Origin: Leptolyngbyaceae cyanobacterium
GTDB taxonomy: Bacteria > Cyanobacteriota > Cyanobacteriia > Phormidesmidales > Phormidesmidaceae
Direction of reading: 5' to 3'
DNA: 64,000 nt
Assembly: GCA_050331235.1 (NCBI GenBank)
Contig: JBHJHA010000011.1
Location: forward strand, 64,001 to 128,000
Each line of letters opens with the position of its first letter. The stretch's first letter is position 1. Positions 1 through 17,749 of this stretch are shown here, piece after piece. Position numbers and translations under genes: made by a program. The notes beneath the pieces are model-generated. The model was not told where the DNA came from and did no database searches. It saw nothing but the letters and a program-made list of their open reading frames with translations.

Positions 1-461
1 TGATCGATGATGGTGTTGACCACAGCAGCCGCCGTTTCCGGATCATCGCTGACATATTCAATTTCAACCACGTCTGTTCCACTGACAATGCCCACATCCA
101 AATTGGACGATAAAGCACCAGGTCTGATTGGATCACCATCTTCATCACGAAGGTCAAGGACCTCAACGGTTTCCGCAAGGATAGGTCTCGACTTAATGAT
201 TTGTATCTGAGTAGTCAAGGGCGTTTGGTCGTTGAGCAATGACTCTAACCGTGCCCCTTGACCGTCACCTAAGTCAGTCAGCGCAGAAGCTGTATCGACC
301 TTGGTAAAGAGTAACTTAGCATCAGCGGAGTACGTAGGTTCAACCCTAGTTGACGCAAAAGCTGCTAGGGCAATACATGTTGCAAATGCCCCCACTGCCA
401 GCAGCCCAGATTCACGAATTGAGCGGCTAATTTGTCGCATTTCTAGACCTTTCAACTCCAT
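1..461 (-). CDS. GumC/Wzc-family polysaccharide chain-length determinant / tyrosine autokinase, N-terminal part (runs off window)
   Basis: Not in ORF track. Manual translation from ATG at 461: MELKGLEMRQISRSIRESGLLAVGAFATCIALAAFASTRVEPTYSADAKLLF...PLTTQIQIIKSRPILAETV...GTDVVEIEYVSDDPETAAAVVNTIID, i.e. an N-terminal TM helix, PxYxAxAxLL, TQxxIIxSxPIL and the DPxxAAxxVN motif of Wzz/GumC proteins. Confidence 0.8.
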   Translation of the reverse strand, partial: MELKGLEMRQISRSIRESGLLAVGAFATCIALAAFASTRVEPTYSADAKLLFTKVDTASALTDLGDGQGARLESLLNDQTPLTTQIQIIKSRPILAETVEVLDLRDEDGDPIRPGALSSNLDVGIVSGTDVVEIEYVSDDPETAAAVVNTIID

Positions 462-1561
462 ATCACCTGCTTAGCTCAATCAGTTTCTCTAGAGCCATTT
501 AGTTTATCTTCCTGTAGTAGCGATTGGTGCCCAGCTTGGCTGCGGGTGTCGGATTGGTTTCACCCAAGACGAATGCGACTGCTGAGTCGACTTAAATTTC
601 CCCAATTTAGCAATGACGTGACTCGGTCCATCCATAGAAAATTTTAGGACTTTAGAGGTTTTCGTAGAGAAAACGGTAAACGCATATTCGGATTTTCGTT
701 TGCAAGCGAGATATGACAGACACCTCGAGTCATTCTTATCTGATCAAATTGTCAGGTGTAAGCTCTCTCGCGATCGCTCCCCTATATGCTGCCCTGAGTC
801 GCGGTTTTCCATTCAACCCGATATCTATTAAAAATGATAGAAGCAATTTCTCCCTTACTAAGGGAATTATGGCTTTCATTGTTTGACATTTTATAATTAG
901 ATGTTGAAGTTAAAGCTTCTGCAAAGTATCCACCAACGCTCTTCAGTAAAAATACGCGAAGCCTAGTAAACCAACTAAAAAACTTACCAGGCAAGGCTTT
1001 TGGTCCCAAAATCAATTCAAGCCAGCATCTTGCCTGTATCTTTTGAAACTCATCTTACGGAATACCCAACAGAAACTTTATATCAGGCGCTCTCCTCTCA
1101 GTAATAATGCCCAGTGCTTCGCTCAAAATGCCAGAAGCAAAGATGTTTTCTCGGGCTACGCATCGAGAAACGATTGAAACGGCTGTCAAGTTTGAGGAAC
1201 CAGTTTGAGGTTTAATGACGGTTGTCCTGAGCGATTAAGTTCCCGACTTGATTGGGATTCCGCCGCGGACAGAGGATCAGTAGATTGCCGTGAGTACTCT
1301 ACCTAGAGAGCAAAAATCCGGGTCCAAGGTGCCGCGAAAGACCTTGACATAGGCGATTCGACGATGGTGAAGATATCCAGCTCGGCGAAAGTTCACAAGT
1401 CGTTTCTTCTACGGAAAGTAACAGAAGAGAGACATTAGATCGAAAGCGCTAGTTAGGCGCACACCGACTCAAGAGGCAGAAAACTTCGGCAGCAAACTGG
1501 CTTGGACAGCCATCTGTAGGCAACATGCCCTTAAGATGACCTGGACATAGAAGGCTATTGG

Positions 1562-2953
1562 CTAGCATTCGATTACATTCACCGGCAGCACGCTCACGGC
1601 CAGTCCGCCCCGTGAGGTTTCCTTGTATTTTTCATGCATGTCTTTGCCGGTATCGCGCATTGTCTGGATAACTTTATCTAGATGAACACAGTGGGTGCCA
1701 TCTCCCTTGAGGGCCATTCGCGAGGCATTAATCGCTTTGATAGCGCCCATGGCATTGCGTTCGATACAGGGGATCTGTACCAACCCGGCAATGGGATCGC
1801 ACGTCAGCCCGAGATTGTGTTCCATCCCAATCTCAGCCGCATTTTCCACTTGGGCAGGGGTACCTCCTAGGACTTCTGTCAAGGCGGCGGCGGCCATTGA
1901 GCAAGCCACGCCAACTTCACCCTGACAGCCCACATCAGCTCCTGAAATCGAGGCATTTTTTTTATACAGTATCGCAATCGCCCCTGCCGTCAATAAAAAT
2001 CGCACAATCCCCCGATCAGTGGCACCGGGACAAAACTGTTGATAATAATGCGCGACTGCAGGAATGATGCCGGCAGCCCCGTTGGTCGGCGCAGTAACGA
2101 TGCGCCCGCCAGCGGCATTTTCCTCATTGACGGCCATAGCGTAGACATTTACCCAGTCCATAATGTGGAGCGGATCAACGAGACAGGAGGCCGACTGAGA
2201 TTTCAAGTGAGTATAGAGATTCGCAGCTCGTCGCTCGACTCTGAGCCCTCCCGGCAGGACTCCATAGGTACGACAGCCCCGGCCAACGCAGGCCTGCATG
2301 ACTGCCCAGATCCGCAACAGCCCTTTGCGAATGGTCTCCTCTGAGTGCCATGCCTGTTCGTTTTGCAGCATTAGGTCGCTGATTGAGAGCTCATTTTGCT
2401 GACAGTGCCTCAGCAACTGCGCCGCTGAATCGAATGGGTAAGGAACTGGTGATCGATGAAGCTGATCGCCATCGACGCTACTTGCGGCTTCATCAATGAT
2501 AAAGCCGCCGCCAATCGAGTAGTAAGCTCGGCTTTGCACGATCGCCCCCCAGCGGTCAAAAGTAGTAAACACCATCCCGTTGGGATGGGTGGGTAATGGC
2601 CGCCAGTGCCACTGAAAATCTGTCTTAGCCTGAAAGGGAATGGGCATTTGACGTAGGAGCCATAGAGCCCCCGTAGCATGAATGCGGTGCAAGTGACCCT
2701 CGACCAAATCGGGGTTGGCGCATTCTGGCAATTCGCCTTCGAGTCCCAGCAACACAGCGCGATCGCTACCATGGCCGCGACCAGTGGCCCCGAGAGAACC
2801 ATGCAAGTCAATCTGCATTCGCTTGACCTGATCGAGCAAACCAGCCGCGGCCAACCCTTGGACGAACTGTCTCGCTGCTTTCATCGGCCCCATCGTATGG
2901 GAGCTAGAGGGGCCAAGACCAATCTTGAAGATGTCGAAGACACTAATAGACAT
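1562..2953 (-). CDS. sdaA: L-serine ammonia-lyase (single-chain Fe-S serine dehydratase)
   Basis: [55 protein letters not shown] and [10 protein letters not shown] motifs; start set at MSISVFD (ATG 2953). Confidence 0.93.
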
Positions 2954-3160
2954 TGATTGCTCGCCGGCTACTTTGTTTGTCCCAAGCTGATAGCAGGGAG
3001 CGTTAGGATATCTTTGATCTGCTAGTGAGTAGGTGAGCGGGATCAGCCTATCTATATCCAACAAAAACGAGCATTTACTTAAGCTCAGGCCCAGGTACAG
3101 GCACCATGGGGGCCTCTATTGGCAGATTTGTAGGTACAGTCGCGCTGCTCAGCCCCAGCT

Positions 3161-5584
3161 CTAAAGCAATTTTTCAACCACCGTAGCCGCTAGAGGCTGG
3201 CCAAAATATTCCACCGTCACTGCCGCTCCAGGATGGGCATACCCCAGGGGCAGATAGGCATAAACGATACATCGTCCGAGGCTGTAGCCATATCCGGCAC
3301 TGGTGACATATCCCAAGACTTTGCCATCTGCGATGACTGGTTCTTTGCCCATCACTACCGCTGTTGGATCATCTAAGGTGATAAAGCAGAGCTTGCGGCT
3401 GGCGTACTCTCGACGCTGTAGCAGCGCCTCTTTGCCCACAAAATCTCCTTTGTCCGGTTTTACGGCAAAGTCCAATCCGGCCTCATAGGGATCATATTCT
3501 GTGTGAATATCTGAGCCCCACAATAAAAAGCCCTTCTCTAATCGCAGGGTGTCAAAGGCTCCTAGCCCCGCTGCGACCAGACCCGACGCTTGCCCCGCCG
3601 CCCACAGAGTATCCCACAGCTTGAGTCCGCACTCCATTGGGGTGTACAGTTCCCATCCGGCTTCACCGACGTAGGATACCCGCACTGCCAAAACTGGAAG
3701 GTTGCCAATCTGTAAATAGCGGTTGCTAAAGAATTTGAAGTTGGCCCTGGAGACATCAGCGGCGGTCACAGACTGAAGGATTGCTGGAGCCTTGGGTCCC
3801 CAGAGTCCGACACAGCAATAGCTTGAGGAAACATCGGTAATGCGCACCGAGCCATCGGCCGGTAAGTGCGATCGCAGCCAAGCTAAATCATGTCCATAGA
3901 CAGAGCCCCCTGTCACCACCCAGTACTTTTCTGGACCTAAACGACTGACTGTGAGGTCGCACATGATGCCGCCATTGGAATCTAGCATCGCCGTATAGAC
4001 GACCTTACCCACCGGCTTATCCACGTCATTAGCACACAGCCCCTGCAAATAGGCCACAACGCCAGGTCCCGTCACCTCAAACTTAGCAAACGGCGTCAGA
4101 TCGTAGAGTGCGGCCCGCTGCCGAGTTGCTAGATGCTCAGCCCCTTGGATGGGCGACCAGTGCCGAGCTTCCCAGCCCTGTCGCGGTGGAATAGTGAACT
4201 CATCTAGCAGCGCAATGTTGGATTTGAACCATTGGGGACGCTCCCATCCAGCACTGAAGACAAACTGCGCCCCTAGCGCTTGCAGACGAGGATGAAACGG
4301 ACTCACCCGGAGTTCGCGAGAGTGAGCTTGCTGCTCTAAAGGGTGGATGATGTCATATACCTCGTCATACTGCTGCGCCCCCGCCCGCATAATAAAATCG
4401 GCACTTTTGCACACGGCAGGAAAGCGATTGATGTCCATTTCATGGATATCGAGGTTTGACACCCCGGTAGTCATCAGGTCGGCAACCACTTTGCCAACGC
4501 CACCCCCATGGGTGACCCAAACCGCTTCGGCCACCCAAAATCCTTTAGCCTGGCTAGACTCACCCACCACAGAACCGCCATCCGGCGTAAACGAAAACAT
4601 GCCGTTGATTTTATAAGTCAACTCAGCCTCGGCCAGCGCCGGAAATAACTCCTGGGTTGACTGCCAAGCTGGACCAAAATGCTCCTCGGTGAATGGCTTA
4701 ACCGATGGCATCACCGGGGCGTCTGCATAGGGCAAGATATAGTCCGGATCCACGAGCAGCGGTTCATGTTGATAGGAGCCAATCCCCCAACAGTCGCCAT
4801 GCTGACGGAAATACATCGCGTGATCTTGGTGACGCACGATCGGATAGCTCACTTCTTCGGTGGCATGGCTCAGTTCCGGGATTGGGGAGGTTTTGACATA
4901 CTGATGCTGCACGGGGGTGAGTGGTATGACTTCCCCAACCATGCGACCAACGCGAGGGCCCCAGATACCTGCACAAACCAGCACCTTGTCAGTCTCAATG
5001 CGGCCCTGATCCGTGACCACGGCTTTGACTTGGCCAGCGATCACCTCAATGTCGGTCACGGTCGTGTTGCCGTGAAAGGCGGCAGCCTCAGCATCAATGG
5101 CAAATTGTGCCAAGGCCTCGGCTGCCCGCAAAGCCTTAGCAATGCCATCCGTTGGCACAAAAAAGCCCCCCAAGATTTTCGCCTCGTCTAGCAGCGGCAG
5201 CTTAGCTTTTACCGCCGCTGGGGAGAGTAAGCTGGCACCTTCGACGCCCCAAGCTTTGGCCCAGCCAAGCTTACGCTGGAGTTCGGCCAGACGAGCCTCG
5301 GTATAGGCCACTTCGATGCCGCCAACGGGGTAAAACGCAGGCCCTTCCTCCGTTTTGAGCTGGCTGTAGAGCTCAACGGTGTACTGGGCTAACTTGGTCA
5401 TCGTTCTCGACGGGTTGGTTTGAAACACCAGTCCCGGAGCGTGGGAAGTAGAACCGCCGGTCGCGAAGAGAGGGCCTTGGTCGATAACCACTATATTTTG
5501 CCAACCGAGCTTGGCAAGATGGTAAGTCGTGCTACAGCCGACAATGCCAGCACCGATAACAACAAGCGTCGCATGGGATTGCAT
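3161..5584 (-). CDS. Dimethylglycine oxidase-like flavoprotein (FAD oxidase + GcvT folate-binding domain)
   Basis: GAGIVG FAD motif; GSTSHAPGLVFQTNPS, HQYVKT, RHQDHAMY, FSFTPDG and AEAVWVTH closely follow Arthrobacter DMGO as I recall it, including the flavinylated His; C-terminal GcvT domain (LRLEKG, GYVTSAGYG); start set at MQSHAT. Confidence 0.88.
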   Translation of the reverse strand: MQSHATLVVIGAGIVGCSTTYHLAKLGWQNIVVIDQGPLFATGGSTSHAPGLVFQTNPSRTMTKLAQYTVELYSQLKTEEGPAFYPVGGIEVAYTEARLAELQRKLGWAKAWGVEGASLLSPAAVKAKLPLLDEAKILGGFFVPTDGIAKALRAAEALAQFAIDAEAAAFHGNTTVTDIEVIAGQVKAVVTDQGRIETDKVLVCAGIWGPRVGRMVGEVIPLTPVQHQYVKTSPIPELSHATEEVSYPIVRHQDHAMYFRQHGDCWGIGSYQHEPLLVDPDYILPYADAPVMPSVKPFTEEHFGPAWQSTQELFPALAEAELTYKINGMFSFTPDGGSVVGESSQAKGFWVAEAVWVTHGGGVGKVVADLMTTGVSNLDIHEMDINRFPAVCKSADFIMRAGAQQYDEVYDIIHPLEQQAHSRELRVSPFHPRLQALGAQFVFSAGWERPQWFKSNIALLDEFTIPPRQGWEARHWSPIQGAEHLATRQRAALYDLTPFAKFEVTGPGVVAYLQGLCANDVDKPVGKVVYTAMLDSNGGIMCDLTVSRLGPEKYWVVTGGSVYGHDLAWLRSHLPADGSVRITDVSSSYCCVGLWGPKAPAILQSVTAADVSRANFKFFSNRYLQIGNLPVLAVRVSYVGEAGWELYTPMECGLKLWDTLWAAGQASGLVAAGLGAFDTLRLEKGFLLWGSDIHTEYDPYEAGLDFAVKPDKGDFVGKEALLQRREYASRKLCFITLDDPTAVVMGKEPVIADGKVLGYVTSAGYGYSLGRCIVYAYLPLGYAHPGAAVTVEYFGQPLAATVVEKLL

Positions 5585-5668
5585 AAAGGAGGCTCCGGAT
5601 TGATGAGGAATAGGCAGGAGGAGCAATGCTGGTTGACAAAGAGTTGCCTTCGCGCTTTTTGCTAAGGA

Positions 5669-6904
5669 CTAGCCGGAGGGAGAATCTCCGACGGCTTTAG
5701 CAACCATTTGCTGAAAGCGATAAACGGTCCGCTCCAACTCCGGCGAAAAACAACCGCCATCAAAATGTGGCGATTGGCGACCTACCTGCATCCGCTCAAT
5801 CATTTCGATGTCTTCGTCGTTGGTCGCTTGCCAGAGGTCAATAGGTAAATGGCGTAAGGCTTCGTTTTCGGGCGTCATCGCGTCATCGCCGACAAAATAA
5901 AAGACCATACGCTCTCGCGTCTGACTTGGCCCTAGCGGATTGGCAATAAAGACGAGAACGTAATCAGGATGTACGCCCAGCATCAAATTTGGGAAAACCG
6001 TGATGTACTCTGCCACCGTGTCTTTCTGGTGTGTGGCCAGATTGGGAAAGGTCGGCAGCGATCGCCCCGCGATGACACCACTCTTGTACAGTAGACTACC
6101 TTGCCCAACATGGATGTCACCGACATCAAAACCGAAATGGTCTTCCATGCGGGAGTAACTGTTTAACGCTGGATGCACCCAACTTAGGTGATAGCTTTCA
6201 GAAAAGTTCTCGACGGCTAACTTCCAGTTGCTGTTGCAGGTGAGCGTAACTTCACGCGGTTCTCGCCGCAGCTGACTCAAATCGTAGGTTGACCAGCGAT
6301 CGCACACGGGCTGCAAATATGTGGACAGCGGTGGCGCATCGCCAGACAAGTTAACAAACACAAGATCCAGCCACTGCTCACAGCGAATCGGCTGTAGCCC
6401 CCGGCTCTCTCGGTCAAATCCAGGAAATGCATCTTTGTAGTACCCACCAAAGTGGGGCGTACTTTTGAGCTGTCCATCCAGACGATAGGTCCAAGAGTGA
6501 TAAGGACAGCGAAGATTACCTTTGACATTGCAAGGGGTAGTGACTAACTGGAGCCCCCGGTGACTGCACACATTGTGAAAGGCTCGCAATTGTCCCTCGC
6601 GATCGCGTACCAGCGCGATCGGGATCCCCGCCACCTCAGCAGGATATACGTCGCCAGGTAAAGGGAGATCTGAGGCTAAACCAACGCAGACCCAGTAACG
6701 ACTAAATACGCTTTGCCGCTCCTGCTGCCAATAAGCCTCATCAACATACGCCTGAGCTGGCAACCCCGGAGCATGATAACCGCCGAGGCGGAGCGTGGGA
6801 GACAGCGAGGCCGCAGGCAGATCTAAAGATACATTGGCACATCTACCCCGCCCCTTAACCATAGCGAGATCAGGCGGCAAAGCCGCAATTTCTTCTGGAG
6901 GCAT
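5669..6904 (-). CDS. Rieske non-heme iron oxygenase alpha subunit, quaternary-amine (choline/betaine monooxygenase) group
   Basis: Rieske motif CSH...CPYHSW; mononuclear Fe motif NWKLAVENFSESYHLSWVHP and late ED; substrate inferred from gene context. Confidence 0.85.
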   Translation of the reverse strand: MPPEEIAALPPDLAMVKGRGRCANVSLDLPAASLSPTLRLGGYHAPGLPAQAYVDEAYWQQERQSVFSRYWVCVGLASDLPLPGDVYPAEVAGIPIALVRDREGQLRAFHNVCSHRGLQLVTTPCNVKGNLRCPYHSWTYRLDGQLKSTPHFGGYYKDAFPGFDRESRGLQPIRCEQWLDLVFVNLSGDAPPLSTYLQPVCDRWSTYDLSQLRREPREVTLTCNSNWKLAVENFSESYHLSWVHPALNSYSRMEDHFGFDVGDIHVGQGSLLYKSGVIAGRSLPTFPNLATHQKDTVAEYITVFPNLMLGVHPDYVLVFIANPLGPSQTRERMVFYFVGDDAMTPENEALRHLPIDLWQATNDEDIEMIERMQVGRQSPHFDGGCFSPELERTVYRFQQMVAKAVGDSPSG

Positions 6905-7030
6905 TTTAATCTCTCAGACTAAAAGAAATGTACAAACGCTTTTGAACTTGCAGCACAGACACAGGCATCCGCACGAAGCGAATGCCGAAGTAAACCAGAC
7001 TCTCAAAAGCTATCATTACAGGTGATAAAC

Positions 7031-7046
7031 ACATGTAATAACAAGT
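7031..7046. promoter_or_regulatory. Putative GntR/HutC-type operator (ACATGTAATAACAAGT) upstream of the Rieske gene
   Basis: Imperfect palindrome with TGT-N4-ACA core, similar to a second site at 7385-7400; a GntR-UTRA gene lies in the cluster. Confidence 0.5.
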
Positions 7047-7384
7047 GAATAAATGAACAGTATCTTTGGCAATTCCCATCTTTTGTCTTATAGGAAACAG
7101 TTTTTTATTTATTTCTTCAGGGAATCTTGACCTCTGACCGTCTACTAAGATAGTTACCGAAAGCTTAAACTCTCCCTACAAAAGGATTTGAAGCAGAAGC
7201 AATCTAGTCTTCTATTGAGCTGCTTCTAAATTTTAAGGTTCTGGATAGACAGGAGACAAATCTTCTCAGGTTCTGCATCAACTTTACGGCTGATTGGCTC
7301 GAAGAGTAAGAATCCACTGCTATGTTCAAGGGAATTATCTCTAAGAAGCAGGGCTACCCTTGGTAATATCAAGCGTCGTTTTGT

Positions 7385-7400
7385 GCTTGTAGTGACAACT
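7385..7400. promoter_or_regulatory. Putative GntR/HutC-type operator (GCTTGTAGTGACAACT) upstream of the BCCT operon
   Basis: TTGT-N4-ACAA palindrome sharing TGTA(A/G)T(A/G)ACAA with 7031-7046. Confidence 0.5.
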
Positions 7401-7442
7401 GTAATTTTGAAAACAGTTTTATTGACTAGCAGGCTCTACGTT
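7401..7442 (+). promoter_or_regulatory. NtcA-type promoter candidate: GTA-N8-AAC, 22-nt spacer, TACGTT (-10)
   Basis: GTAATTTTGAAAAC at 7401-7414 (one mismatch to GTA-N8-TAC), then exactly 22 nt, then TAN3T at 7437-7442. Confidence 0.4.
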
Positions 7443-7887
7443 GGCATTGATAGAGTTTGCTAAAACCTTGTGTTTTGATCGTTCACGACCGTCTAGGTTG
7501 AATGAGAGGAGGGCTTTTATCTGTCAAACTAAACCCCTAGAGCTTGTTGACAAATGGCATGCTAGACGTGGTGGGTTACACTCACGCTGGTTCCGTTAGA
7601 GCGATGGGTGCTCGTTAGGTCTGTCAGCGATGCTTTTCCGCAGCGGTACTGCTATGGCCCAGGCCGCCAGAACTTTGTAACGGGGTATTGTACTTACTTG
7701 ACAAGCCCTGAAGACTGTTGAAGGGTATTGATGTGCGACAGCGGAGGCAGAGGATGTCACAGCTTTATGTGTCGGATGTAACTTTCCACTGTGAGAGTAC
7801 ACAGGCCGAGCATATGCCATGTTTGAGCTCAGACTGTCGAGCCATCGCTGCCTATCGATATGTTGGAACCTAAATTAAATAACCATC

Positions 7888-9561
7888 ATGACCTCTGAGA
7901 ATTATGGGCATAGCCAGCCTGAGGAGCATTTTCAACGAATGCCAGAGCATGCGCCCACTCGCCACCTTGATCGTCGACCGGGCGATCGCAACATCACCGC
8001 TAGGGGGTTCGACTTTCATCCTGAGGTGTTTTTAGTTTCAGGAGGACTAATCCTACTGTTTGTGGTGTTGACCCTCATCTTCCAGGCACCGGCTGAGAGT
8101 CTTTTTGGTCAAATCCAGTCTTTTATCGCGGGCTCGTTGGGCTGGTTCCTGATTTTGTCTGTATCTGTTTTCTTGGTATTTACCGTCTATATCGCCTTTA
8201 GCAAGTTAGGCAAAGTGCGTTTGGGCGGTCCTGATGCAAAACCAGAGTTTCCCACCTTCGCTTGGATTGCCATGCTCATCAGCGCTGGTATGGGCATTGG
8301 TCTCATGTTTTGGAGCGTGGCAGAGCCGATTTACCATTTCCAGTCGCCCCCAGCTTTGCTCGGCGAGATTCCGCCTAACTCGGCAGATGCCGCCAAACAG
8401 GCCCTGGGCATTACCTTCTTCCACTGGGGTCTGCATGCTTGGGGCATTTATGCCTTAGTTGGTTTATCCCTCGCATTTTTCACCTATAACTGGGGCCTCC
8501 CACTGACCATTCGTTCCGTTTTCTTTCCCCTGTTGGGCGAGAAGATCTATGGCTGGCCCGGCAATATGATTGATATCCTAGCCGTTGCGTCCACTTTGTT
8601 TGGACTAGCAACATCCTTGGGCTTTGGGGTACAGCAGGTCAACGCCGGACTAAATTTCCTGTTTGGCTTAGATACCAGCACTACGGTTCAGGTCGGATTA
8701 ATCGCCATCATCACGGGCTTTGCTACAGCCTCAGTCGTCTCCGGTCTGGGAAATGGAGTACGGCGACTGAGTGAGCTGAATATGATTTTGGCCGCCACCC
8801 TGATGGTGTTTGTTCTGTTAGTAGGACCCACCTTATTCATCTTCAACTCCTTTGTGGAGACGGTAGGCTACTACGCCGCTTCCCTACCGACGATGAGTTT
8901 CTGGACAGAAACCTTTTCGGGTACTGACTGGCAAAATAGCTGGACTGTCTTTTACTGGGGATGGTGGGTCTCTTGGTCACCATTTGTTGGTATCTTCATT
9001 GCTCGGGTCTCCAGGGGACGGACGGTTCGTGAATTCATTCTGGGCGTTTTGCTCTTGCCCTCCTTGCTGACGTTTTTGTGGATGTCAGTCTTTGGCGGCA
9101 CAGCCCTCAACTTTGAACTGGGCGCTGAGACCAGTGGCGTCATTAGCAGTGCCGTCAGCGAAAACGTTGCAACGGCTCTGTTCGTGATGCTGGAGCAACT
9201 GCCGCTAACCGGGCTGACCTCCTTTGTAGGCATTCTCCTGGTAGTCGTATTCTTCGTCACCTCTTCTGATTCGGGTTCTTTGGTGGTCGACAGTTTGACC
9301 TCTGGCGGCAAGCTTGAATCACCCATACCGCAGCGAGTTTTTTGGGCGGTGATGGAGGGCGTCGTGGCAGCTGCCCTCTTGTTAGGAGGTGGATTGTCGG
9401 CCTTGCAAACTGCAGCGATTACCACGGGCCTACCCTTTGCCATTGTGCTGTTGGTGATGTGTTACAGCATCTACAGAGGTTTGCAGTACGAGCACGATGT
9501 CATTCACGTCAAGGACAAGCTAAAGGAGTCAGAAGCTGCAGAAACGGCGATCGCCCCTTAA
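7888..9561 (+). CDS. BCCT family (betaine/carnitine/choline) transporter
   Basis: About 12 TM segments; SAGMGIGLMFWSVAEP, FFHWGLHAW, WTVFYWGWWVSWSPFVGIFIARVSRGRTVREF and FFVTSSDSGSLV signatures. Confidence 0.95.
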   Translation: MTSENYGHSQPEEHFQRMPEHAPTRHLDRRPGDRNITARGFDFHPEVFLVSGGLILLFVVLTLIFQAPAESLFGQIQSFIAGSLGWFLILSVSVFLVFTVYIAFSKLGKVRLGGPDAKPEFPTFAWIAMLISAGMGIGLMFWSVAEPIYHFQSPPALLGEIPPNSADAAKQALGITFFHWGLHAWGIYALVGLSLAFFTYNWGLPLTIRSVFFPLLGEKIYGWPGNMIDILAVASTLFGLATSLGFGVQQVNAGLNFLFGLDTSTTVQVGLIAIITGFATASVVSGLGNGVRRLSELNMILAATLMVFVLLVGPTLFIFNSFVETVGYYAASLPTMSFWTETFSGTDWQNSWTVFYWGWWVSWSPFVGIFIARVSRGRTVREFILGVLLLPSLLTFLWMSVFGGTALNFELGAETSGVISSAVSENVATALFVMLEQLPLTGLTSFVGILLVVVFFVTSSDSGSLVVDSLTSGGKLESPIPQRVFWAVMEGVVAAALLLGGGLSALQTAAITTGLPFAIVLLVMCYSIYRGLQYEHDVIHVKDKLKESEAAETAIAP

Positions 9562-9698
9562 TCGCCTCAGCTTCTCATCTCTCGGAGAGATCCTCGATGG
9601 GTACTCTTGGATCTCTCTATCGGGTTCTTAATCCTCAAACACGGCACCATCCCTAGCAAACTCTATCGGTTCACCTTTCGCTAGGAGCTTGGTTTGTC

Positions 9699-10856
9699 AT
9701 GACCACCCATTTTGATGCAATCGTTATTGGCGCTGGTGGCGTCGGCAGCGCAGCGGCCTACTATCTGGCCAAAGCGGGGCAAAAAGTATTGTTGCTAGAG
9801 CAATTTGAGCTCAATCATCAATACGGCAGTTCCTATGGCTTTTCGCGGGTTATCCGATACACCTATGACAATCCAACCTACGTCGACCTCATGCGCGACG
9901 CCTACCCCCTCTGGTTTGCCTTACAAACCGAAGCTGGAGAAGAGCTATATATCAAAACAGGTGGATTGGACTTTGGATTTCCCGATGTCGATACCTTTCA
10001 GCGGTTAAAAAGCAGTTTAGACACCTCTGGTCTGGACTATGAGCACCTCACTCACTCCGACATTGCCGAGCGCTATCCACAATTTGCCCTATCTGATGGC
10101 ATGGAAGGGCTGTTTCACGCTGAGTCCGGCTTACTCAAGGCATCTCGCTGCGTCTTGGCCCACATTCGACTGGCCCGGGCCCGAGGGGCAACCGTTGTCG
10201 ACCAAACCCCCGTCTTGAAAATCACACCGACAGAGTTTGGGGTTGAAGTGCAAACCGCTCAGACTACCTATGGGTGCGATCGCCTCGTCTTAACGACCGG
10301 CAGCTGGGCTAGAGGACTTTTAGCGGCACAGGGCATCGAACTGCCGCTCAAGATCATGCCCTGTCAGCTAGGCTTTTACCAACCGCAGCAGCCAGAAAAT
10401 TTTACGCCAGATCAGTTTCCCGTCTTTTTTGCCCATATGAATGGCGACTATGGCGAAATGCCCTATGGAATTCCCCATAAAGATGCCAGCATTGGCCTCA
10501 AAATCACGACATTTTATGGCTGGCAAACGGTTGACACCCCCAGCGAAGTCGATTACACCCCGAGTCTAGACTGGGCCGAGCGTATCCGCACTTGGGCGCA
10601 GCAGTATATGCCCACTGCAGCGGGGCCTCTGTTATCGACTCGTCGGTGTCTTTATACGCTGACTCCGGATAAAGATTTTGTGGTAGATTGCCATCCCTAC
10701 CATCCTCAAGTTGTCATTGGTGCTGGGTTTTCAGGCCACGGCTTTAAATTCACCACATTAATGGGCAAAATGCTCGCTGACCTTGCCGTTCAAGGCAGTA
10801 CTCCCCACGACACTAGTCGGTTCAAGTTGGCTCGATTTCAATTGGTTACAGCATAG
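9699..10856 (+). CDS. Monomeric sarcosine oxidase / N-methyl-amino-acid oxidase (MSOX/SolA family)
   Basis: GAGGVG FAD motif, GSSYGFSRVIR, covalent-FAD Cys motif CLYTLTPD, GFSGHGFKF. Confidence 0.9.
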   Translation: MTTHFDAIVIGAGGVGSAAAYYLAKAGQKVLLLEQFELNHQYGSSYGFSRVIRYTYDNPTYVDLMRDAYPLWFALQTEAGEELYIKTGGLDFGFPDVDTFQRLKSSLDTSGLDYEHLTHSDIAERYPQFALSDGMEGLFHAESGLLKASRCVLAHIRLARARGATVVDQTPVLKITPTEFGVEVQTAQTTYGCDRLVLTTGSWARGLLAAQGIELPLKIMPCQLGFYQPQQPENFTPDQFPVFFAHMNGDYGEMPYGIPHKDASIGLKITTFYGWQTVDTPSEVDYTPSLDWAERIRTWAQQYMPTAAGPLLSTRRCLYTLTPDKDFVVDCHPYHPQVVIGAGFSGHGFKFTTLMGKMLADLAVQGSTPHDTSRFKLARFQLVTA

Positions 10857-10943
10857 TGCTTACGGCGGCGATCGCCGTCTCTAAACTGATCACGCGCAGA
10901 GCCTGACGCGCTATTCCACCATTCCTCAACTATTTTCGATAAG

Positions 10944-11717
10944 ATGCCAGGGGATAGTCAGCGGATGATGACAATTTTTATGGTTCCCCATGGGCAGGAG
11001 ACCGACAAGCAGCCCCTACATGTGGCGATTTCTGAGCAGCTCAAAGCCAAAATTGAGTCCGGGCAATATCGCCCCGGTGAGCGCTTGCCTAGTGAGTTTG
11101 ATCTCGGTGAAATTTTTGAGGTCAGTCGCACAACCATTCGTAAGGCAATCGCCAATTTGATCCAGCAGGGGCTGGTCACCACCCAGCAGGGTAAAGGGAT
11201 TTTTGTCACAGAGCAGCACAAGATCAGCTTCTCGATGTCAAATCCCCTCATGTATTTCGACGCTGCTCTTAAGCAACAGGGCTATGTTGGTAGCGTTCAG
11301 TCCCTGCGATTTCAGCTGACCCGACCTTTGCCAGAGGTACAGCAGCAGCTGAGACTGGGCGATCGCACCAAGGTTTTTTGGCAAGAAAAGATCTATTACG
11401 CCGACGAAACGCCGATTGCTTTAGACATTACCTATTATCCAGAGGCGATCGGCGAGGCCTTGGGAGACGAATTACAGCGGGGCTTTACCTACAGCACGTT
11501 AGTTGACCGAGGCATCCACTTAAACGGTGCCAAAGTCAGCTTAGAAAGCATACCTGCCAGTTATGAATTGAGTGAGTATCTCGCCATTCCTTTAGGCATG
11601 CCATTGCTGGTCTTTAACTACGTCGCATTTCGAGCGGATCAGGTCCCTGTTGTGTGTGGCAAAACCTTATCTCGTTCTGACTGGACCTGCTACACCGCCG
11701 AGATTGCTCAGGTTTAA
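10944..11717 (+). CDS. GntR family transcriptional regulator, HutC subfamily (UTRA domain)
   Basis: wHTH motif PGERLPSEFDLGEIFEVSRTTIRKAI...QGKGIFV and UTRA-length C-terminal domain; exact start uncertain. Confidence 0.92.
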   Translation: MPGDSQRMMTIFMVPHGQETDKQPLHVAISEQLKAKIESGQYRPGERLPSEFDLGEIFEVSRTTIRKAIANLIQQGLVTTQQGKGIFVTEQHKISFSMSNPLMYFDAALKQQGYVGSVQSLRFQLTRPLPEVQQQLRLGDRTKVFWQEKIYYADETPIALDITYYPEAIGEALGDELQRGFTYSTLVDRGIHLNGAKVSLESIPASYELSEYLAIPLGMPLLVFNYVAFRADQVPVVCGKTLSRSDWTCYTAEIAQV

Positions 11718-11951
11718 CCCGGATTTGACCAGTCTCCTGGTCGCAGCACGGAATTGGCCCCAAACGAAAAATTCCCTCTGTCCTAAACAACCCTTTAAAT
11801 GCAATAACAGTTTCTTGTTGGGAATAACAGATACGTGCGGCTGCCGATTAATTTTAGTTGCGGTAGCTTCTCTTGATTGACACATCAAATACGATAGTTT
11901 CAGATATCCATGTGGGCATTTCATGCCCACCTACTCTGACATTGACAGCGA

Positions 11952-13469
11952 TCAGTCAGATTGTAATCGCTGTTTGAGGTGGTCACTCAAGGAGCTGCGC
12001 GAAGCTAGGCGAGCTTTGCCAGATGCCGCCCAAGCCTGTAGTGCATCGACCTGTTCTTGGGCAGTCCGCGCTAATGGCACGATTTGGCTGGCGGCCTCTA
12101 AAATATCTTCCGTAGTGAAGTCACGATTTTGGCTAAATCCAATGTGCATCGCTTCAACAATCGCCTGCTCGATTTCAGCACCTGAAAAGCTGGGCGTTTC
12201 GTAAGCCAGGCGCTCCATGTCGTAACTTTGTAAGTTGTGGGCGCGTAAACGACCTAGATGAACTTCGTAGATCGCTTTGCGTTCCTCTTGAGTAGGAAGT
12301 CCCACAAAAAAGATTTCATCGAAACGACCCCGCCGCAGCAGTTCTGGAGGCAAGGATTGAATGTTGTTAGCCGTCGCCACTACAAATACTGGAGACGCTT
12401 TTTCTGCCATCCAGGTAATGAAAGTCCCAAAAACCCGACTGCTAGTGCCAGCATCACCGCGACCATCGACTCCGGCAAAAGCCTTGTCAATTTCATCAAT
12501 CCACAGAATACAGGGTGCCAGCGCTTCAGAAATTTGGATCATTTGCCGCGTTCGGGATTCTGACTCGCCAATCAACCCGGCAAACAGCCGACCGACATCT
12601 AATCGGAGGAGCGGGAGATGCCAGTGATGGGCGATCGCCTTAGCCGTCAGAGATTTTCCAGTACCTTGGATGCCTACCAGCAGCAAGCCACGGGGATAAG
12701 GGAGGCCATACTGTCGAGCTTTGGCGGAGAAAGCATTACCTCGACGTAGCAGCCAATCTTTGAGATTATCGAGACCCCCAATCTCAGAAATTTGCTCCTT
12801 TGCCGGATAGAAGTCCAGGATTTGAGTCTGTCGAATAGTTTGACGTTTTTCCTCCAGGACTAGCTCAATATCATCGGGGCAAAAAGTTCCCCGAGCGGCA
12901 ATTCCCCGGGCGAGAACTCGCCGAATCCGCTCCATGGATAACCCTTGACAAGATTGCACCAGCGCATCCAAATCAGCAGAGGACAGTTGAACATTTAAGC
13001 CGTCTAATAAGCGCGTCACCTCGGCGCGGATTTCCGTCACGTCAGGGAGCGCAAACTCAATAATGGTAACGACCTCGGTTAAGTCGTCGGGGATTTGCAC
13101 CTGAGGCGCTAGTAGGATGATATTTTTGGCCTGGGACTTTAACCGACGGGCCAGGTTTCTCAGTTTTCGAGAAATGGCAACGTCCTCTAAAAATCGATGA
13201 TAATCGCGGAGGACAAACAGCGCCGCGACAGACTCTGATAGCTTTTCAACCTGCTCGAGCGCTTGCAGCGGATTACGCCGAGCCACGCCCTGATCGTTTG
13301 GGTTACCACGGTAACCATCAACAAAGTCCCAGGTGTAGAGATTGCGGTTGTTTAGCTGTTGCGCCACATTCGCGATAGCCTGTTCAGCCCGTTCTTCTTC
13401 CAGCGTCGACAGATAGATGACGGGATAACGCGCCCGCAAGAATAGCAGTAATTCGTCTTGGAAGCTCAT
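11952..13469 (-). CDS. ycf46: Ycf46-family AAA ATPase
   Basis: RARYPVIY N-terminus, Walker A GIQGTGKS, Walker B LWIDEIDK, LLRRGRFDEIFFV; conserved position after yidC-jag-yceD. Confidence 0.88.
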   Translation of the reverse strand: MSFQDELLLFLRARYPVIYLSTLEEERAEQAIANVAQQLNNRNLYTWDFVDGYRGNPNDQGVARRNPLQALEQVEKLSESVAALFVLRDYHRFLEDVAISRKLRNLARRLKSQAKNIILLAPQVQIPDDLTEVVTIIEFALPDVTEIRAEVTRLLDGLNVQLSSADLDALVQSCQGLSMERIRRVLARGIAARGTFCPDDIELVLEEKRQTIRQTQILDFYPAKEQISEIGGLDNLKDWLLRRGNAFSAKARQYGLPYPRGLLLVGIQGTGKSLTAKAIAHHWHLPLLRLDVGRLFAGLIGESESRTRQMIQISEALAPCILWIDEIDKAFAGVDGRGDAGTSSRVFGTFITWMAEKASPVFVVATANNIQSLPPELLRRGRFDEIFFVGLPTQEERKAIYEVHLGRLRAHNLQSYDMERLAYETPSFSGAEIEQAIVEAMHIGFSQNRDFTTEDILEAASQIVPLARTAQEQVDALQAWAASGKARLASRSSLSDHLKQRLQSD

Positions 13470-13519
13470 GTCAATCTCTGGCTGACAATTGTCTAGCGTT
13501 TCTTTCGGATTGCCTAGGC

Positions 13520-14047
13520 CTATGGGCGGGGTGATTCGTCACTGGTCAGCTGCTGTTTAAGCGCTTCTAACACTGACCAGCGCTCATCTACGACAGGACT
13601 GGCATGCGGCTGAGGGGATTCAACGGTCAACCCCTGACAGTTAGCATCACAAACCTGCCGTTGCGGCAGTTGCAAACAGATCTGCTCATAAATCCAAGTT
13701 TCAGGATCAAAGTATCCGTAAGGCGACAGACTCTCCACTAAATCCTCAAGGCTTACCTCCTGCTCCAAGGGTAACCCCTGAGCAGCCGCAGCAGATTCAT
13801 CTAACCAGATAATCTCATGGGCATCGACTACGACCCGATGGTTGTATTGCTGCAAACAGCGATCGCAAGATAGCGTCACAATGGTAGACGCTGTCCCCTT
13901 GACTTCCAAAAAAGTCGTGCCGTGCCGCATCGACACTTCAGCCCTAACCGGGGTCAGCGTCTTCAAATCATCGAAATCGACTTCAAACTGCAGCGATCGA
14001 GTCCGATTGACCGCATTGAGCAGATGTGGAATGTAAACCGCCGGCAT
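13520..14047 (-). CDS. YceD/DUF177 family protein
   Basis: CDRCL and CDANCQG cysteine pairs, DERWSVLEALK tail; start set at MPAVYIP. Confidence 0.85.
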   Translation of the reverse strand: MPAVYIPHLLNAVNRTRSLQFEVDFDDLKTLTPVRAEVSMRHGTTFLEVKGTASTIVTLSCDRCLQQYNHRVVVDAHEIIWLDESAAAAQGLPLEQEVSLEDLVESLSPYGYFDPETWIYEQICLQLPQRQVCDANCQGLTVESPQPHASPVVDERWSVLEALKQQLTSDESPRP

Positions 14048-14095
14048 TATGTCACTCCTCAACTCTGCCAAACATTTTGAACTCGTCATGCAACT

Positions 14096-14602
14096 CTAGT
14101 CAGACTCAGTATTAGAATCTGCTAACTGACGCACAACCAACCGTCGATCAGGTTCACGACCTCGACTAAACGTTTCCAAGCCTTCATACGAGTTCAGAAA
14201 ATGATGCACCTGCCGACGTTCAGCTGAAGACAGCGCTACCATTTCAAACTCTTCGCCAGTTTCCTGAGCCGTTGTAGCAGCTTCCGTTGCGAGTGCCATC
14301 AGTTCAGACTTACGCTTAGTTCGATGCCCCGCCAGTTCAATCGTGTAGGGCTGCTGCTCGCCCGGGTCACACCCTAAATTCAAAGTCGTGTTTGCAAGGT
14401 ACTGAATCGCATCTAAAGCATGTCCCTGCTCGCCAATCAGCTTAGCTATCTCCTGATCCGATAGCTGAGCATCGCGAATGATCAGCCACAAACTCGAGCC
14501 AAACTCATCATCAACTAGAGAAGCATCAACTTTAGTCTCTATCCCTTGAAAAGCCAACAGAGACTGCAGCCATTCAATCCCTTTCTGTTCCGGATTTGCC
14601 AT
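14096..14602 (-). CDS. Jag/KhpB-like RNA-binding protein (KH + R3H)
   Basis: LIGEQGHALDAIQYL, R3H motif ERRQVH, SRGREPDRRLVV; directly downstream of yidC. Confidence 0.9.
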   Translation of the reverse strand: MANPEQKGIEWLQSLLAFQGIETKVDASLVDDEFGSSLWLIIRDAQLSDQEIAKLIGEQGHALDAIQYLANTTLNLGCDPGEQQPYTIELAGHRTKRKSELMALATEAATTAQETGEEFEMVALSSAERRQVHHFLNSYEGLETFSRGREPDRRLVVRQLADSNTESD

Positions 14603-14608
14603 TGTTGT

Positions 14609-15763
14609 CTACGATGCCTTTTTCTTCTTTTTAGAGCGCCCAGGCTCAAACGGTAGCGTCTGACGACTATCGTCCGACTCATCATCAGACTGCGCATCGA
14701 CAATCTTTTGAAGGTTTTCCGGCAAGGGTTCTCTAGAAAGAATAAAACTCTGCAGAGTTTGAAAGATGTTGGCAATCACCATGTACATCAAGACGCCGGC
14801 TGGCAACGGAAAAAATAAAAACATCCCCGAGAAAATGATAGGCGTAAACTTATTGATGGCCGCTTGCTGAGGATTATCGCTGCTCGACCCACCTTGTCCA
14901 GAGAGCAGCTGATTGACATATAAGCTGACGCCAAAGGTCAAGACCATGAGTAAAATATCCCAGTGGATAGCACCATCATCGCCTCTAACGCCAACGCGTC
15001 CTAATGCCTCAATAAATAGGAAGCCCTTACCTGCAGCTAACCCAGGAACCTTAACTTGCAACGTCACATCACCCGGAGCGATCGCTTCAATCGTCCCATC
15101 CTCAGCGATGTTGACTAGCTGTTCACCCTTAGTAACCTCAACGTAGGGTTGAACATCAGATGCACTGCTGTACCCCTGTGCGATTTTTTCTAAGGACTCG
15201 CCCTGCTCGTCCTGAATCTGAAAGTCTGTCTTTTCGCCAACTGCCAGACGATTCCCCCCTGGAATGGTGACCGACATCGGGAAATGCACACCATCAGTCA
15301 CATAAATACTCTTGGAAGACGTAGAAAAGGCCTGAGGCTGAATCTGCTCGACCTTATCGGAGGTAAGAATTTGTAAGTTGACTGGATAAGCAACATCGGC
15401 AAAGGGCGATCCTCGCAGAGTCGCGAACAAAGCAAATAAGATCGGCATCTGCAGCAAGACAGGAAAGCAGCCTGCCAAAGGGTTACCAAATTCTTTGTAA
15501 ACTTTGCTCATTTCCTCCTGTAATTTCGGAGGATCATCCTTATAACGCTCTTGAATTTCTTTCACCCGCTTTTGCATGACGGGTTGAGCAACTTTCATGC
15601 GCCGCATGTTTCGAATTGACCCTGCATTTAGCGGGTAAAGCGCAAACCGAATCACCAATGTCAAAGCGACAATCGCCAAACCGTAGCTCGGCACAACCCC
15701 ATAGAAAAAATCTAGGATTGGCAACATGATGTTGTTTGAAAGGAAGCCGATACCAAAATCCAT
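14609..15763 (-). CDS. yidC: Membrane protein insertase YidC (Alb3/Oxa1)
   Basis: [64 protein letters not shown]. Confidence 0.96.
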
Positions 15764-15939
15764 TCGCGCTCTACCTCTGTGGGCCTATCTAATGTACGCT
15801 GCGTCCGAGTAAACCTCTAATAGGGTAACTCCCAGAGGGGCAGTCTGAAACCTCGAGACGATTCAGTCATTAGCCTAAGCTACTTCACACCTAGCCTCGT
15901 TACGGTTTTCACCCCAAGAAAACAAATTCTACTCACGCA

Positions 15940-16332
15940 TTAGGTGCCAATTGCCCCACTGGCGGTCTGGGCTTTAGCAGGTAACTTCTCGCTGATGTAG
16001 TCATACACTTCACGGAACTTGGGCACGGCCCGGAGCTCTAGCTTGCTGCCATCTTTGAGGGTCACCACCATATCCCCCCATAGTCCTAATCCACGGGGCA
16101 CAGTGACGATTTTCTTCACTTCTGAATAAATAATGTCAGAGCGAGTCCGCCCCATCCAGCCACCAGTAATGGAGATGCGACGGCTAGTAATGCGATAGCG
16201 TAACCACAAGGCCCGGACGATCGCACCAATAGTCAAGGGAATGCAGACCAATGTAAAAGCCAACAGCACATTAATAATCAAGTCGCCCACATGGGGACCC
16301 CCTTCGTAGAAAACCTCCTCCTTAATGCCCTT
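15940..16332 (-). CDS. Bacterial PH-domain membrane protein between rnpA and yidC; expected ATG appears as AAG
   Basis: The frame extends upstream of the called GTG (16290) as (K)GIKEEVFYEGGPHVGDLI; the codon at 16332-16330 is AAG with an in-frame TAG just before it; core RYRITSRRISITGG...WGDMVVTLKDGSKLELRAVP. Confidence 0.8.
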   Translation of the reverse strand, partial: KGIKEEVFYEGGPHVGDLIINVLLAFTLVCIPLTIGAIVRALWLRYRITSRRISITGGWMGRTRSDIIYSEVKKIVTVPRGLGLWGDMVVTLKDGSKLELRAVPKFREVYDYISEKLPAKAQTASGAIGT

Positions 16333-16702
16333 CTAAAACCTCAAGATCTAAAAATAACTTTTCTAATTCTCGCAGAAATTGCCAATAGTCGCACTGGGTA
16401 GCAGCACTGCGAAGCACCACTACCACCCATAAACCTGGCGACAACTGCGGAAGCAGTGTTTGCAGTGCTGCTCGAACTTGCCGCTTTAACCGATTACGAA
16501 CGACGGCCCGCTTGCTGACTTTTTGGCTAATAGTTATGCCAAAACGGGAGCAAACTGTTGAGGTCGAATCTTCTGACACGTTGAGGACTCTGACCACTAA
16601 GTGCCCTGTAGATGCTTGTCGACCGACTCGATAAACCTGCGAAAACTCTCTTGTTCGATTGAGTCGATGCTGCTTAGGTAAAGCCACTTTGGCATCTGCC
16701 AT
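16322..16702 (-). CDS. rnpA: Ribonuclease P protein component
   Basis: ALPKQHRL, RFGITISQKVSKRAVVRNRLKR (RNR motif); true start may be GTG 16687. Confidence 0.95.
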   Translation of the reverse strand: MADAKVALPKQHRLNRTREFSQVYRVGRQASTGHLVVRVLNVSEDSTSTVCSRFGITISQKVSKRAVVRNRLKRQVRAALQTLLPQLSPGLWVVVVLRSAATQCDYWQFLRELEKLFLDLEVLEGH

Positions 16703-16804
16703 TCAGCGTCAGCCTGCACTTCAAAAGCCAGGCGAGTAGTTACCAAGAAATCAAGCGTTGTCCGCGTGAGGACTACGGAATCGAGAAAGACACGAAGGAA
16801 TGCC

Positions 16805-16942
16805 TTAGACGGCCAGCCGAGCCCGCCCACGACGACGACGATTTCGGATTACGCGACGCCCCGTAGCGGTCCGCATGCGAGCTCGAAAGCCCGAAGTCCG
16901 CTTTTGCTTACGATTTGTTCCACCTAATGTTCTTTTGCTCAT
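16805..16942 (-). CDS. rpmH: 50S ribosomal protein L34
   Basis: Not in ORF track (45 aa): [45 protein letters not shown]; upstream of rnpA. Confidence 0.97.
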
Positions 16943-17194
16943 GATCTTTTCCCTTTACTTCAATCTCTGCTAGTTAGCGCTGCAGGCACTTCAACAAGGC
17001 AATAGGATATCGGCCTTCGTTTCTAAAAGCGGCTTCCCATCGTAGCATTAACCCAGAAATCGTGAAAGCATCGCAGAAGTAACCAGAACTTTTCCCATAC
17101 ACAGGCAAACCCTTTAGGCTCTGTGCATGGGCAGTTTGAGCGTCTCGGGGCGTGAGCGAGGGGGCCGAGACTGTAGCTGTTCGGTATATGAAAT

Positions 17195-17749
17195 CTACTC
17201 GGCAGATACCTCCAGTGGCCAAATCCCCACCAGTTCCCGAAGAGGACCGCCCTGATAAAGCGCATCGAGATAGAAGTAGAAGTTGTTATAGCGATTGGGG
17301 TTGCGGACCTCGTGGAAAACAACCACAAAGCTGCTATTAGGCTCTATAGGATCAATTGGATAAATCTCAAAGGTATTGGTTTCTTCATCGTAGACCACCT
17401 CATCGACGGGAATAGTCGCCCCCCCGCGCCCCGATCCTTCGCGTAGCTCTACTCGAGCTTTAGTAAAGTATCCACCTTGGTCTTCAAACTCTTCCGGATA
17501 CGTAATTTGCAGCTCCAAGATTTCTTCATTCACCTTACGCCCTGCCACTTGCAGGTAGTAACGCGCATCCGGGCTGCGGCGCTCATTGTTATCAATGAAG
17601 TAGCCCAGACGGTACTCTGAATCAACGCCACCAAAAATCGTAAAACCACCCGTCGTGCTTTGCGCGATCGCACTACTGCTAGCGATTGCCAAGCTAGACG
17701 CAGCAAAAGCTCCCATCAAACCCCGATGTAGCCATTTCTTAAGTGACAT
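17195..17749 (-). CDS. Secreted DUF2808-like cyanobacterial protein
   Basis: Signal peptide ending AIA-Q, FTIFGGV, VRNP..F.F motif; usual position upstream of rpmH in cyanobacteria. Confidence 0.7.
   Translation of the reverse strand: MSLKKWLHRGLMGAFAASSLAIASSSAIAQSTTGGFTIFGGVDSEYRLGYFIDNNERRSPDARYYLQVAGRKVNEEILELQITYPEEFEDQGGYFTKARVELREGSGRGGATIPVDEVVYDEETNTFEIYPIDPIEPNSSFVVVFHEVRNPNRYNNFYFYLDALYQGGPLRELVGIWPLEVSAE

Follow-up and report, generated by a model that had tools for sequence, protein, structure and literature searches.

The 64,000-nucleotide stretch of Leptolyngbyaceae cyanobacterium contig JBHJHA010000011.1 analyzed here (the window) carries a six-gene cluster for which we propose a role in the import and stepwise demethylation of glycine betaine. 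The six open reading frames (ORFs) are intact and lie in two divergent arms separated by 983 bp: a minus arm encoding a Rieske oxygenase, a dimethylglycine (DMG) oxidase-like flavoprotein (DMGO) and the serine dehydratase SdaA, and a plus arm encoding a BCCT transporter, a monomeric sarcosine oxidase (MSOX)-like flavoprotein and a GntR regulator (Table 1). Within each arm, neighboring genes are 84-207 bp apart, the Rieske gene lying 84 bp upstream of the DMGO gene. Families were assigned by Pfam, NCBIfam and Protein Data Bank (PDB) searches, which bear out the six co-located genes named in an earlier interpretation of the bare DNA (the sequence-only reading). The cluster is interior to a 190-kb contig of a 4.8-Mb genome that is 95.5% complete, and it is real, conserved and co-regulated.

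Table 1. Genes and putative operator sites of the cluster, in window coordinates.
Feature	Position	Strand	Basis
SdaA, L-serine ammonia-lyase, single-chain Fe-S type (serine to pyruvate and NH3)	1562..2953	-	TIGR00720 705 bits, cut-off 345
DMG oxidase-like flavoprotein with folate-binding (GcvT) domain, 807 aa	3161..5584	-	PDB 1PJ5
Rieske non-haem iron oxygenase alpha subunit, predicted glycine-betaine N-demethylase	5669..6904	-	PF00355 and PF00848
Palindromic operator 1, ACATGTAATAACAAGT, putative GntR site	7031..7046	.	127 bp upstream of Rieske start
Palindromic operator 2, GCTTGTAGTGACAACT, BCCT-arm side, putative	7385..7400	.	genome-wide matrix scan
BCCT transporter, predicted Na+-coupled quaternary-amine importer	7888..9561	+	PF02028 E 3e-193
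Monomeric sarcosine oxidase / SolA-family flavoprotein, 385 aa	9699..10856	+	best PDB matches
GntR regulator, HutC (UTRA) type	10944..11717	+	PF00392 and PF07702

The DMGO protein matches the Arthrobacter enzyme 1PJ5 over its full length (E 1.8e-244, compared with 1.7e-123 for DMG dehydrogenase), by a wide margin its nearest solved structure. Its H48, H227, Y258 and D543 align with H48, H225, Y259 and D552 of 1PJ5, which we take to be the His linking flavin adenine dinucleotide (FAD), the His-Tyr pair and the catalytic Asp of the folate site, and all 36 cyanobacterial copies retain the FAD-His and His-dyad motifs. A blastp search of the host genome with electron transfer flavoprotein (ETF) queries from SAR11 revealed no ETF genes, which fits the predicted oxidase activity of DMGO. 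The MSOX-like protein matches Bacillus MSOX (1ZOV, E 3.4e-71) ahead of N-methyltryptophan oxidase (2.9e-50), and its C317 occupies what is presumably the FAD-linking Cys position of MSOX. Supporting genes (glyA, gcvP/T, folD, purU, frmAB and katG) are present elsewhere in the genome. We consider it highly probable that the cluster confers DMG and sarcosine catabolism, as these proteins predict.

A survey of the 173 genomes of the order, which comprises one family, found the cluster to be recurrent. After distant paralogues (four Rieske, two MSOX) were dropped, Rieske orthologues remained in 52 genomes (from 56 matches), DMGO in 53, MSOX in 58 (from 60 matches) and BCCT in 58; the three enzymes occur together in 49 genomes and with the transporter in 46, and Rieske and DMGO are present in 13 of 13 genomes of the host genus. 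Among 401 genomes sampled evenly across the phylum, close DMGO matches were confined to the host genome and one congener, two further genomes having distant matches; in 401 genomes of the class, strong Rieske matches were found in 27, spanning six families, and weak ones in 11 more. By source name, the homologues come mainly from Leptolyngbya, Nodosilinea, Phormidesmis, Elainellaceae and Pleurocapsales, some of them cultured strains, and such names suggest a saline habitat for the bearers. Seven family genomes (including G542, G555 and G560, loci L135, L136 and L137) have an MSOX orthologue with no Rieske or DMGO match, reflecting either partial loss or incomplete assembly.

Of 40 cyanobacterial loci, some of which stop at contig ends, 37 bear the Rieske gene. 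These 37 also carry DMGO (36), MSOX (34), BCCT (31), GntR (31), SdaA (19), a MetF-like gene (17) and an EamA transporter (12), making SdaA an optional member. The MetF-like gene is short and divergent (Pfam MTHFR below cut-off, approximately 40% identity to SAR11 copies) and, with the EamA gene, often lies between DMGO and sdaA (L095:3986-4768 and 16 other loci). The window cluster has neither, and MetF was unmatched in the host genome with two queries.

HIP1 sites (GCGATCGC) occur at 1.35 per kb in the host genome, a density that, together with its named relatives, identifies it as cyanobacterial. The 10,156-bp cluster span holds 10, at least one per gene, whereas composition alone predicts 0.19 and stretches of equal length contain 13.8 on average across the genome. 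Over the 37 related loci, the cluster has 1.21 sites per kb and its flanks have 1.07. HIP1 content and the 13 congeners rule out contamination or a single recent transfer. The argument that HIP1 sites inside the genes speak against a very recent acquisition holds, although the cluster also appears mobile between cyanobacterial families: a 20-row DMGO tree, many rows of which are assembled bins, rejected monophyly for each of three host families (approximately unbiased test, p-AU 0.02, 1e-6 and 7e-4), which suggests exchange among cyanobacteria.

A palindrome near ACTTGTAATTACAAGT is present in the divergent region of all 37 loci, with at least two copies in 35; the regions hold 84 sites, compared with 0.28 in shuffles. 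With a matrix built from the relatives only, window sites excluded, operator 1 was the top match in the host genome (21.8 bits) and operator 2 the second (19.8), the next scoring 16.0. The GntR protein, the true start of which is probably 10968 judging by its relatives, has helix-turn-helix and UTRA domains, and the operator beside its genes has the palindromic GT-N-AC form that we take as the HutC consensus. As the regulator is of the HutC type, it is likely to bind these palindromes. A wider regulon was ruled out, only the two promoter sites scoring high in the genome. Control by NtcA was likewise rejected: the NtcA box (GTA-N8-TAC) is absent from the window promoter, and matches in 6 of the 37 regions are scattered and do not align. 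Because no NtcA box is conserved, control looks substrate-driven rather than nitrogen-driven. The suggestion that betaine serves as a nitrogen source gained no specific support, given the lack of a conserved NtcA box and the presence of SdaA in only 19 of the 37 loci.

The Rieske protein has complete ligands (C113/H115/C133/H136), a bridging E236 and a triad of H239/H244/D365. Its model (predicted local distance difference test, pLDDT, 75.5) is nearest CntA and Stc2, CntA being the top Foldseek match and Stc2 scoring nearly equal, and ESM Atlas matches were to generic Rieske clusters only. It shares the ligands, bridging carboxylate, 2-His-1-Asp triad and fold of the group V quaternary-ammonium oxygenases. 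By sequence it is not GbcA/BmoA, scoring 153 bits on the GbcA model NF058607 (cut-off 670), and because it is not this Pseudomonas enzyme we infer the first step. Asn362, a close neighbor of the iron-binding D365, is common to the Salinisphaera clade described below, GbcA and Stc2; the position is Phe in CntA and in a sister clade linked to aldehyde dehydrogenase (ALDH) genes. The CntA Cys206/Cys209 pair is absent (S237/L240), and N362 replaces CntA Phe319. The host genome yielded no further betaine demethylase: MttB is missing, and the sole homocysteine methyltransferase domain is that of MetH.

No YeaX-, PDR- or rubredoxin-reductase-like gene or ferredoxin lies inside the cluster in the window or the 37 related loci, one reductase-like match lying several kb outside one related cluster. 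The sequence-only reading held that every step except GlyA was encoded; glyA is indeed present elsewhere in the genome, but the Rieske reductase is also missing from the cluster. Three plant-type ferredoxin motifs were identified in the host genome. Plant choline monooxygenase (CMO) has no reductase of its own and is ferredoxin-fed, and by analogy to it the electrons for the Rieske protein would most plausibly come from a plant-type ferredoxin.

By identity, the nearest relative of the Rieske protein outside the cyanobacteria is that of Salinisphaera aquimarina (51%). The gene there is divergent from a GbdR-like gene, is followed by a reductase gene, and has soxBDAG, sdaA, a DMG oxidase-like gene, BCCT and fhs as neighbors. 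GbdR is described as induced by betaine and DMG and as activating gbcAB (PMC12093977, in part). A strong GbdR-like match is present in nine of the 21 genomes of this genus; four of these have canonical GbcA, five have the cluster-type Rieske gene beside gbdR and followed by a reductase gene, and none has both, while the other 12 genomes have neither GbcA nor the cluster-type Rieske.

The BCCT transporter, the only one in the host genome, has a GMGIG motif (134-138; GxGxG) and a complete aromatic cage (W180/W185/Y188/W359/W360/W363). It lacks both the Asp of choline carriers and the Phe of dimethylsulfoniopropionate (DMSP) carriers, residues assigned as markers of proton-coupled and DMSP carriers, respectively (PMC11708041, in part). 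These motifs do not fix the substrate, since the nearest solved relative, TmaT, shares them. A GSMT match, with a query confirmed against PDB 5GWX, was found in only one of the 173 family genomes, which has none of the cluster genes; a viral-contig scan and a five-genome scan for a GSMT query found none. The host genome contains no BetA or BetB orthologue (BetB best 32%), but does contain a GT20 gene of the GgpS/OtsA kind and a ProVW-type ATP-binding cassette (ABC) importer. Because GSMT is nearly absent from the family and BetA and BetB orthologues are lacking, betaine is likely scavenged from outside; recycling of home-made betaine is disfavored by the missing synthesis genes in this 95.5% complete genome. 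The cluster may also serve to get rid of imported betaine when salinity drops.

We propose, with a probability of roughly 65%, that the cluster is a substrate-induced module for betaine import and removal of the three methyl groups, entered through a monooxygenase other than GbcA. The BCCT protein would take up betaine with Na+, and the Rieske protein, borrowing electrons as above, would hydroxylate one N-methyl group to give DMG and formaldehyde. DMGO would then produce sarcosine, H2O2 and, via its folate domain, 5,10-methylene-tetrahydrofolate, and the sarcosine oxidase would produce glycine, formaldehyde and H2O2. Glycine would pass to GlyA and the glycine cleavage system, and SdaA would convert serine to pyruvate and ammonia. 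Formaldehyde and peroxide would be removed by FrmAB and KatG, whose genes, like those of the glycine enzymes, lie outside the cluster. In the absence of a pathway compound bound to its UTRA domain, GntR would repress the two arms through the two palindromes. The original betaine-catabolic interpretation has been strengthened by synteny, by the conservation of catalytic residues, by the operator and by the replacement pattern in Salinisphaera.

Several observations weigh against this proposal. Phe234, which does not vary among the 36 homologues aligned, occupies the position of CntA Tyr203, where an aromatic residue is given as the mark of group Va (carnitine, choline and benzalkonium), GbcA and Stc2 having Asn (PMC7948474, in part); this would group the protein with carnitine and choline oxygenases and argues against a demethylase. 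The Joint Genome Institute (JGI) labels the homologues "choline monooxygenase," and the overall charge of the Rieske protein gives no hint of ferredoxin adaptation. The MSOX-like oxidase scores 327 on TIGR01377 (monomeric sarcosine oxidase), not reaching the cut-off of 480, and passes the SolA / N-methyltryptophan oxidase model PRK11259 (355 vs 257). The best PDB match of the transporter is TmaT, which is specific for trimethylamine (TMA) and does not bind betaine, and its score on the betaine-BCCT model NF047988 is 588 (cut-off 650). Trees of the Rieske proteins (FastTree, 73 of 109 rows; a quick tree, 48 rows) do not resolve the cyanobacterial clade from those of Salinisphaera and the ALDH-linked proteins, and the case for orthology with Salinisphaera is therefore built on identity (48% vs 42%) and shared columns (68 vs 57 of 89). 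The ALDH-linked clade co-occurs with GbcA in the three genomes checked, and the wider Rieske family therefore has other substrates. The Salinisphaera GbdR is just under its cut-off (462 vs 480), the replacement pattern may reflect few independent events, the kin not being independent, and S. aquimarina (G851) carries a stand-alone homocysteine-methyltransferase-family gene that could encode BHMT. The first of these points is countered by the gene neighborhood of the Salinisphaera relative, by its mutual exclusion with GbcA and by the shared Asn362. In addition, the Rieske proteins of analogous Priestia and haloarchaeal modules are also aromatic at the 203 position, and such non-cyanobacterial proteins in DMGO modules would argue for a demethylase.

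It is conceivable, if unlikely, that the entry substrate is another betaine (proline, hydroxyproline, beta-alanine or homoserine betaine), or several, with the flavoproteins taking the remaining methyl groups. The Rieske subfamily is uncharacterized, its sister clade stands in a different context, Stc2 is among its closest solved relatives, SolA/MSOX-family oxidases take several N-methyl amino acids, and the MSOX-like protein scores below the MSOX cut-off. Yet a DMGO with kept active site in 36 of the 37 loci, the recurrent SdaA and MetF-like partners and the alternation of cluster-type Rieske and GbcA beside GbdR point to the glycine series, and no proline-pathway gene recurs in the related loci. 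We regard as improbable the idea that the Rieske protein is a ferredoxin-fed choline monooxygenase for betaine synthesis, the other genes consuming external DMG and sarcosine. The group Va aromatic F234, the automatic JGI label and a reductase-less state resembling that of plant CMO would suit such an enzyme, but the betaine-to-DMG step would be left without one, the Rieske gene directly precedes DMGO at 84 bp, and BetB is lacking from the genome (best 32%). Moreover, an aldehyde dehydrogenase gene is not recurrent (two loci only, one via a separate paralogous cluster), the transporter lacks the Asp of proton-coupled choline carriers, and S. aquimarina already has a BetA above cut-off.

Cleavage of the C-N bond in the manner of CntA, to give TMA and an aldehyde, with a TmaT-like transporter moving TMA and the oxidases acting separately, would account for the best BCCT match (TmaT), the best Foldseek match (CntA) and F234. 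This appears very improbable, however, given Asn362 where the CntA cage has Phe319, the missing Cys pair, the lack of a partner aldehyde dehydrogenase and the nearly equal Foldseek scores for Stc2; furthermore, TMA feeds neither DMGO nor MSOX. Within the preferred reading, betaine demethylation, we tentatively suggest that the Rieske protein may represent a second, non-GbcA family of betaine monooxygenases, mislabeled as choline monooxygenase, that in cyanobacteria would have lost its reductase and be driven by photosynthetic ferredoxin, by analogy with the plant enzyme. Filamentous non-producers in mats and benthic habitats might thereby use light to demethylate their neighbors' betaine for nitrogen and C1 units.

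Betaine catabolism by three demethylations is well established in heterotrophs (PMC9321204, PMC12093977 and PMC12478193, each in part). The systems of Pseudomonas, Chromohalobacter and Vibrio natriegens (gbcAB or bmoAB, dgcAB, soxBDAG, glyA, sdaB; GbdR) follow the same predicted route, with a Rieske enzyme first and a serine dehydratase last (PMC12093977 and PMC9321204, in part). The cluster differs in its Rieske protein (approximately 25% identity to GbcA, Phe rather than Asn at 203, no GbcB), in having DMG oxidase where those systems have DgcAB and monomeric sarcosine oxidase where they have SoxBDAG, in its HutC-type GntR in place of the AraC-type GbdR, and in its phototrophic host. DMG oxidase of Arthrobacter globiformis (1PJ5) has the same two-domain FAD and folate architecture, with the four key residues aligned, but the cyanobacterial copies form their own clade and are placed behind a Rieske gene; at the single Arthrobacter DMGO locus looked at, folD and a MetF-like gene are present but a Rieske gene is not. 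Haloferax volcanii pHV3, Haladaptatus and a Priestia megaterium plasmid combine Rieske, SolA, DMGO and BCCT genes as the cluster does, and the H. volcanii module also includes glyA and a serine/threonine dehydratase gene (ilvA). Betaine use has been proposed, as a prediction only, from haloarchaeal DMGO-BCCT loci (PMC3102087, in part). The haloarchaeal and Priestia Rieske proteins are only 27-29% identical to that of the cluster and branch elsewhere. In these modules (L142, L143 and L144) the Rieske proteins are unrelated to each other and to the cluster protein (25-29%); different oxygenases may have been repeatedly recruited into the same DMGO-SolA-BCCT design. Group Va enzymes (CntA/YeaW, plant CMO and OxyBAC) resemble the cluster Rieske in the aromatic residue at Tyr203, the bridging Glu and the fold, in a comparison made without plant CMO itself, but the cluster protein is 28% identical to YeaW and has no Cys pair, Asn for Phe319 and no CntB.

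Within the cyanobacteria, Incharoensakdi and Waditee reportedly described in 2000, to go by their title, BHMT-dependent betaine degradation in Aphanothece halophytica. The earlier claim that no cyanobacterial catabolic pathway had been characterized is qualified by that title, although the route of the cluster is itself undescribed. Betaine breakdown in A. halophytica is shared with our proposal, but by a methyltransferase and in a betaine-producing halophile, and the present host genome has neither a stand-alone BHMT nor GSMT. In the limited literature covered we found no published description of the cluster or the Rieske subfamily, and the portions of PMC7240134, PMC13381886 and PMC10952381 available contain nothing on the cluster. 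The pathway is already known; the host group and the first enzyme are new.

Related Rieske genes and clusters were observed in other contexts. Loci of the ALDH-linked clade, from Halomonas, Pseudomonas, Colwellia, Marinobacterium and Phaeobacter (L011-L013, L015, L016, L022, L028, L029, L140, L141), include aldehyde dehydrogenase, reductase (several rubredoxin-fused), PuuB-like oxidase, EutQ cupin and BCCT genes and may encode an uncharacterized amine-cleavage pathway. Pelagibacteraceae have a related Rieske (37-40%) beside MetF-like and GcvT-like genes (L019, L020, L023, L026, L030, L031, L034, L036, L039-L041), several of these loci also having BHMT, DMG-dehydrogenase-like and betaine ABC genes. 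Some cyanobacterial relatives (G527, G732, G759 and G620; L158:5148-9705, L159, L160:5093-11047 and L161:3918-11466) carry a second, paralogous cluster with a SolA-like oxidase (35-37%), a Rieske (33-36%), a PucR/AdeR-like regulator and an aldehyde dehydrogenase nearest BADH (537 vs cut-off 669), which in G620 adjoins a betaine-type ABC importer; this is possibly a choline-oxidizing or other N-methyl pathway. In G430 (L099:8460-11010) a DDE transposase splits the Rieske gene and sdaA is absent from the locus, with DMGO, BCCT, MSOX and GntR intact, and judging from its genes this genome is a natural first-step mutant.

To the left of the window cluster is a Wzz/Wzc-like chain-length gene (1-460), followed by 1.1 kb with no long ORF, and to the right (11952-17749) are ycf46-like AAA, yceD, jag and yidC genes. 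These neighbors, ycf46 and yidC included, are common to none of the related loci. No Rfam matches were found in window positions 1-20000, promoter and terminator scans gave no signal above chance, and no repeat or insertion sequence copy of the flanking intergenic DNA was found elsewhere in the genome.

In published accounts of betaine cycling, phototrophs are the producers and heterotrophs the consumers (PMC12478193 and PMC12324868, in part), and Prochlorococcus is reported to be without betaine degradation genes (PMC12324868, in part). If our reading is true, phototrophs would join the betaine consumers, in approximately three in ten genomes of a large filamentous cyanobacterial family. They would do so in saline mats and biofilms, settings in which TMA and methane are also produced from betaine. 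The Rieske protein is a candidate second betaine monooxygenase family missed by gbcA-based surveys, its "choline monooxygenase" label booking such genes on the synthesis side, and its confirmation would contradict the published rule that demethylases do not have an aromatic residue at position 203. The reading lends itself to direct testing, since cultured strains are available and a gbcA mutant has been published.

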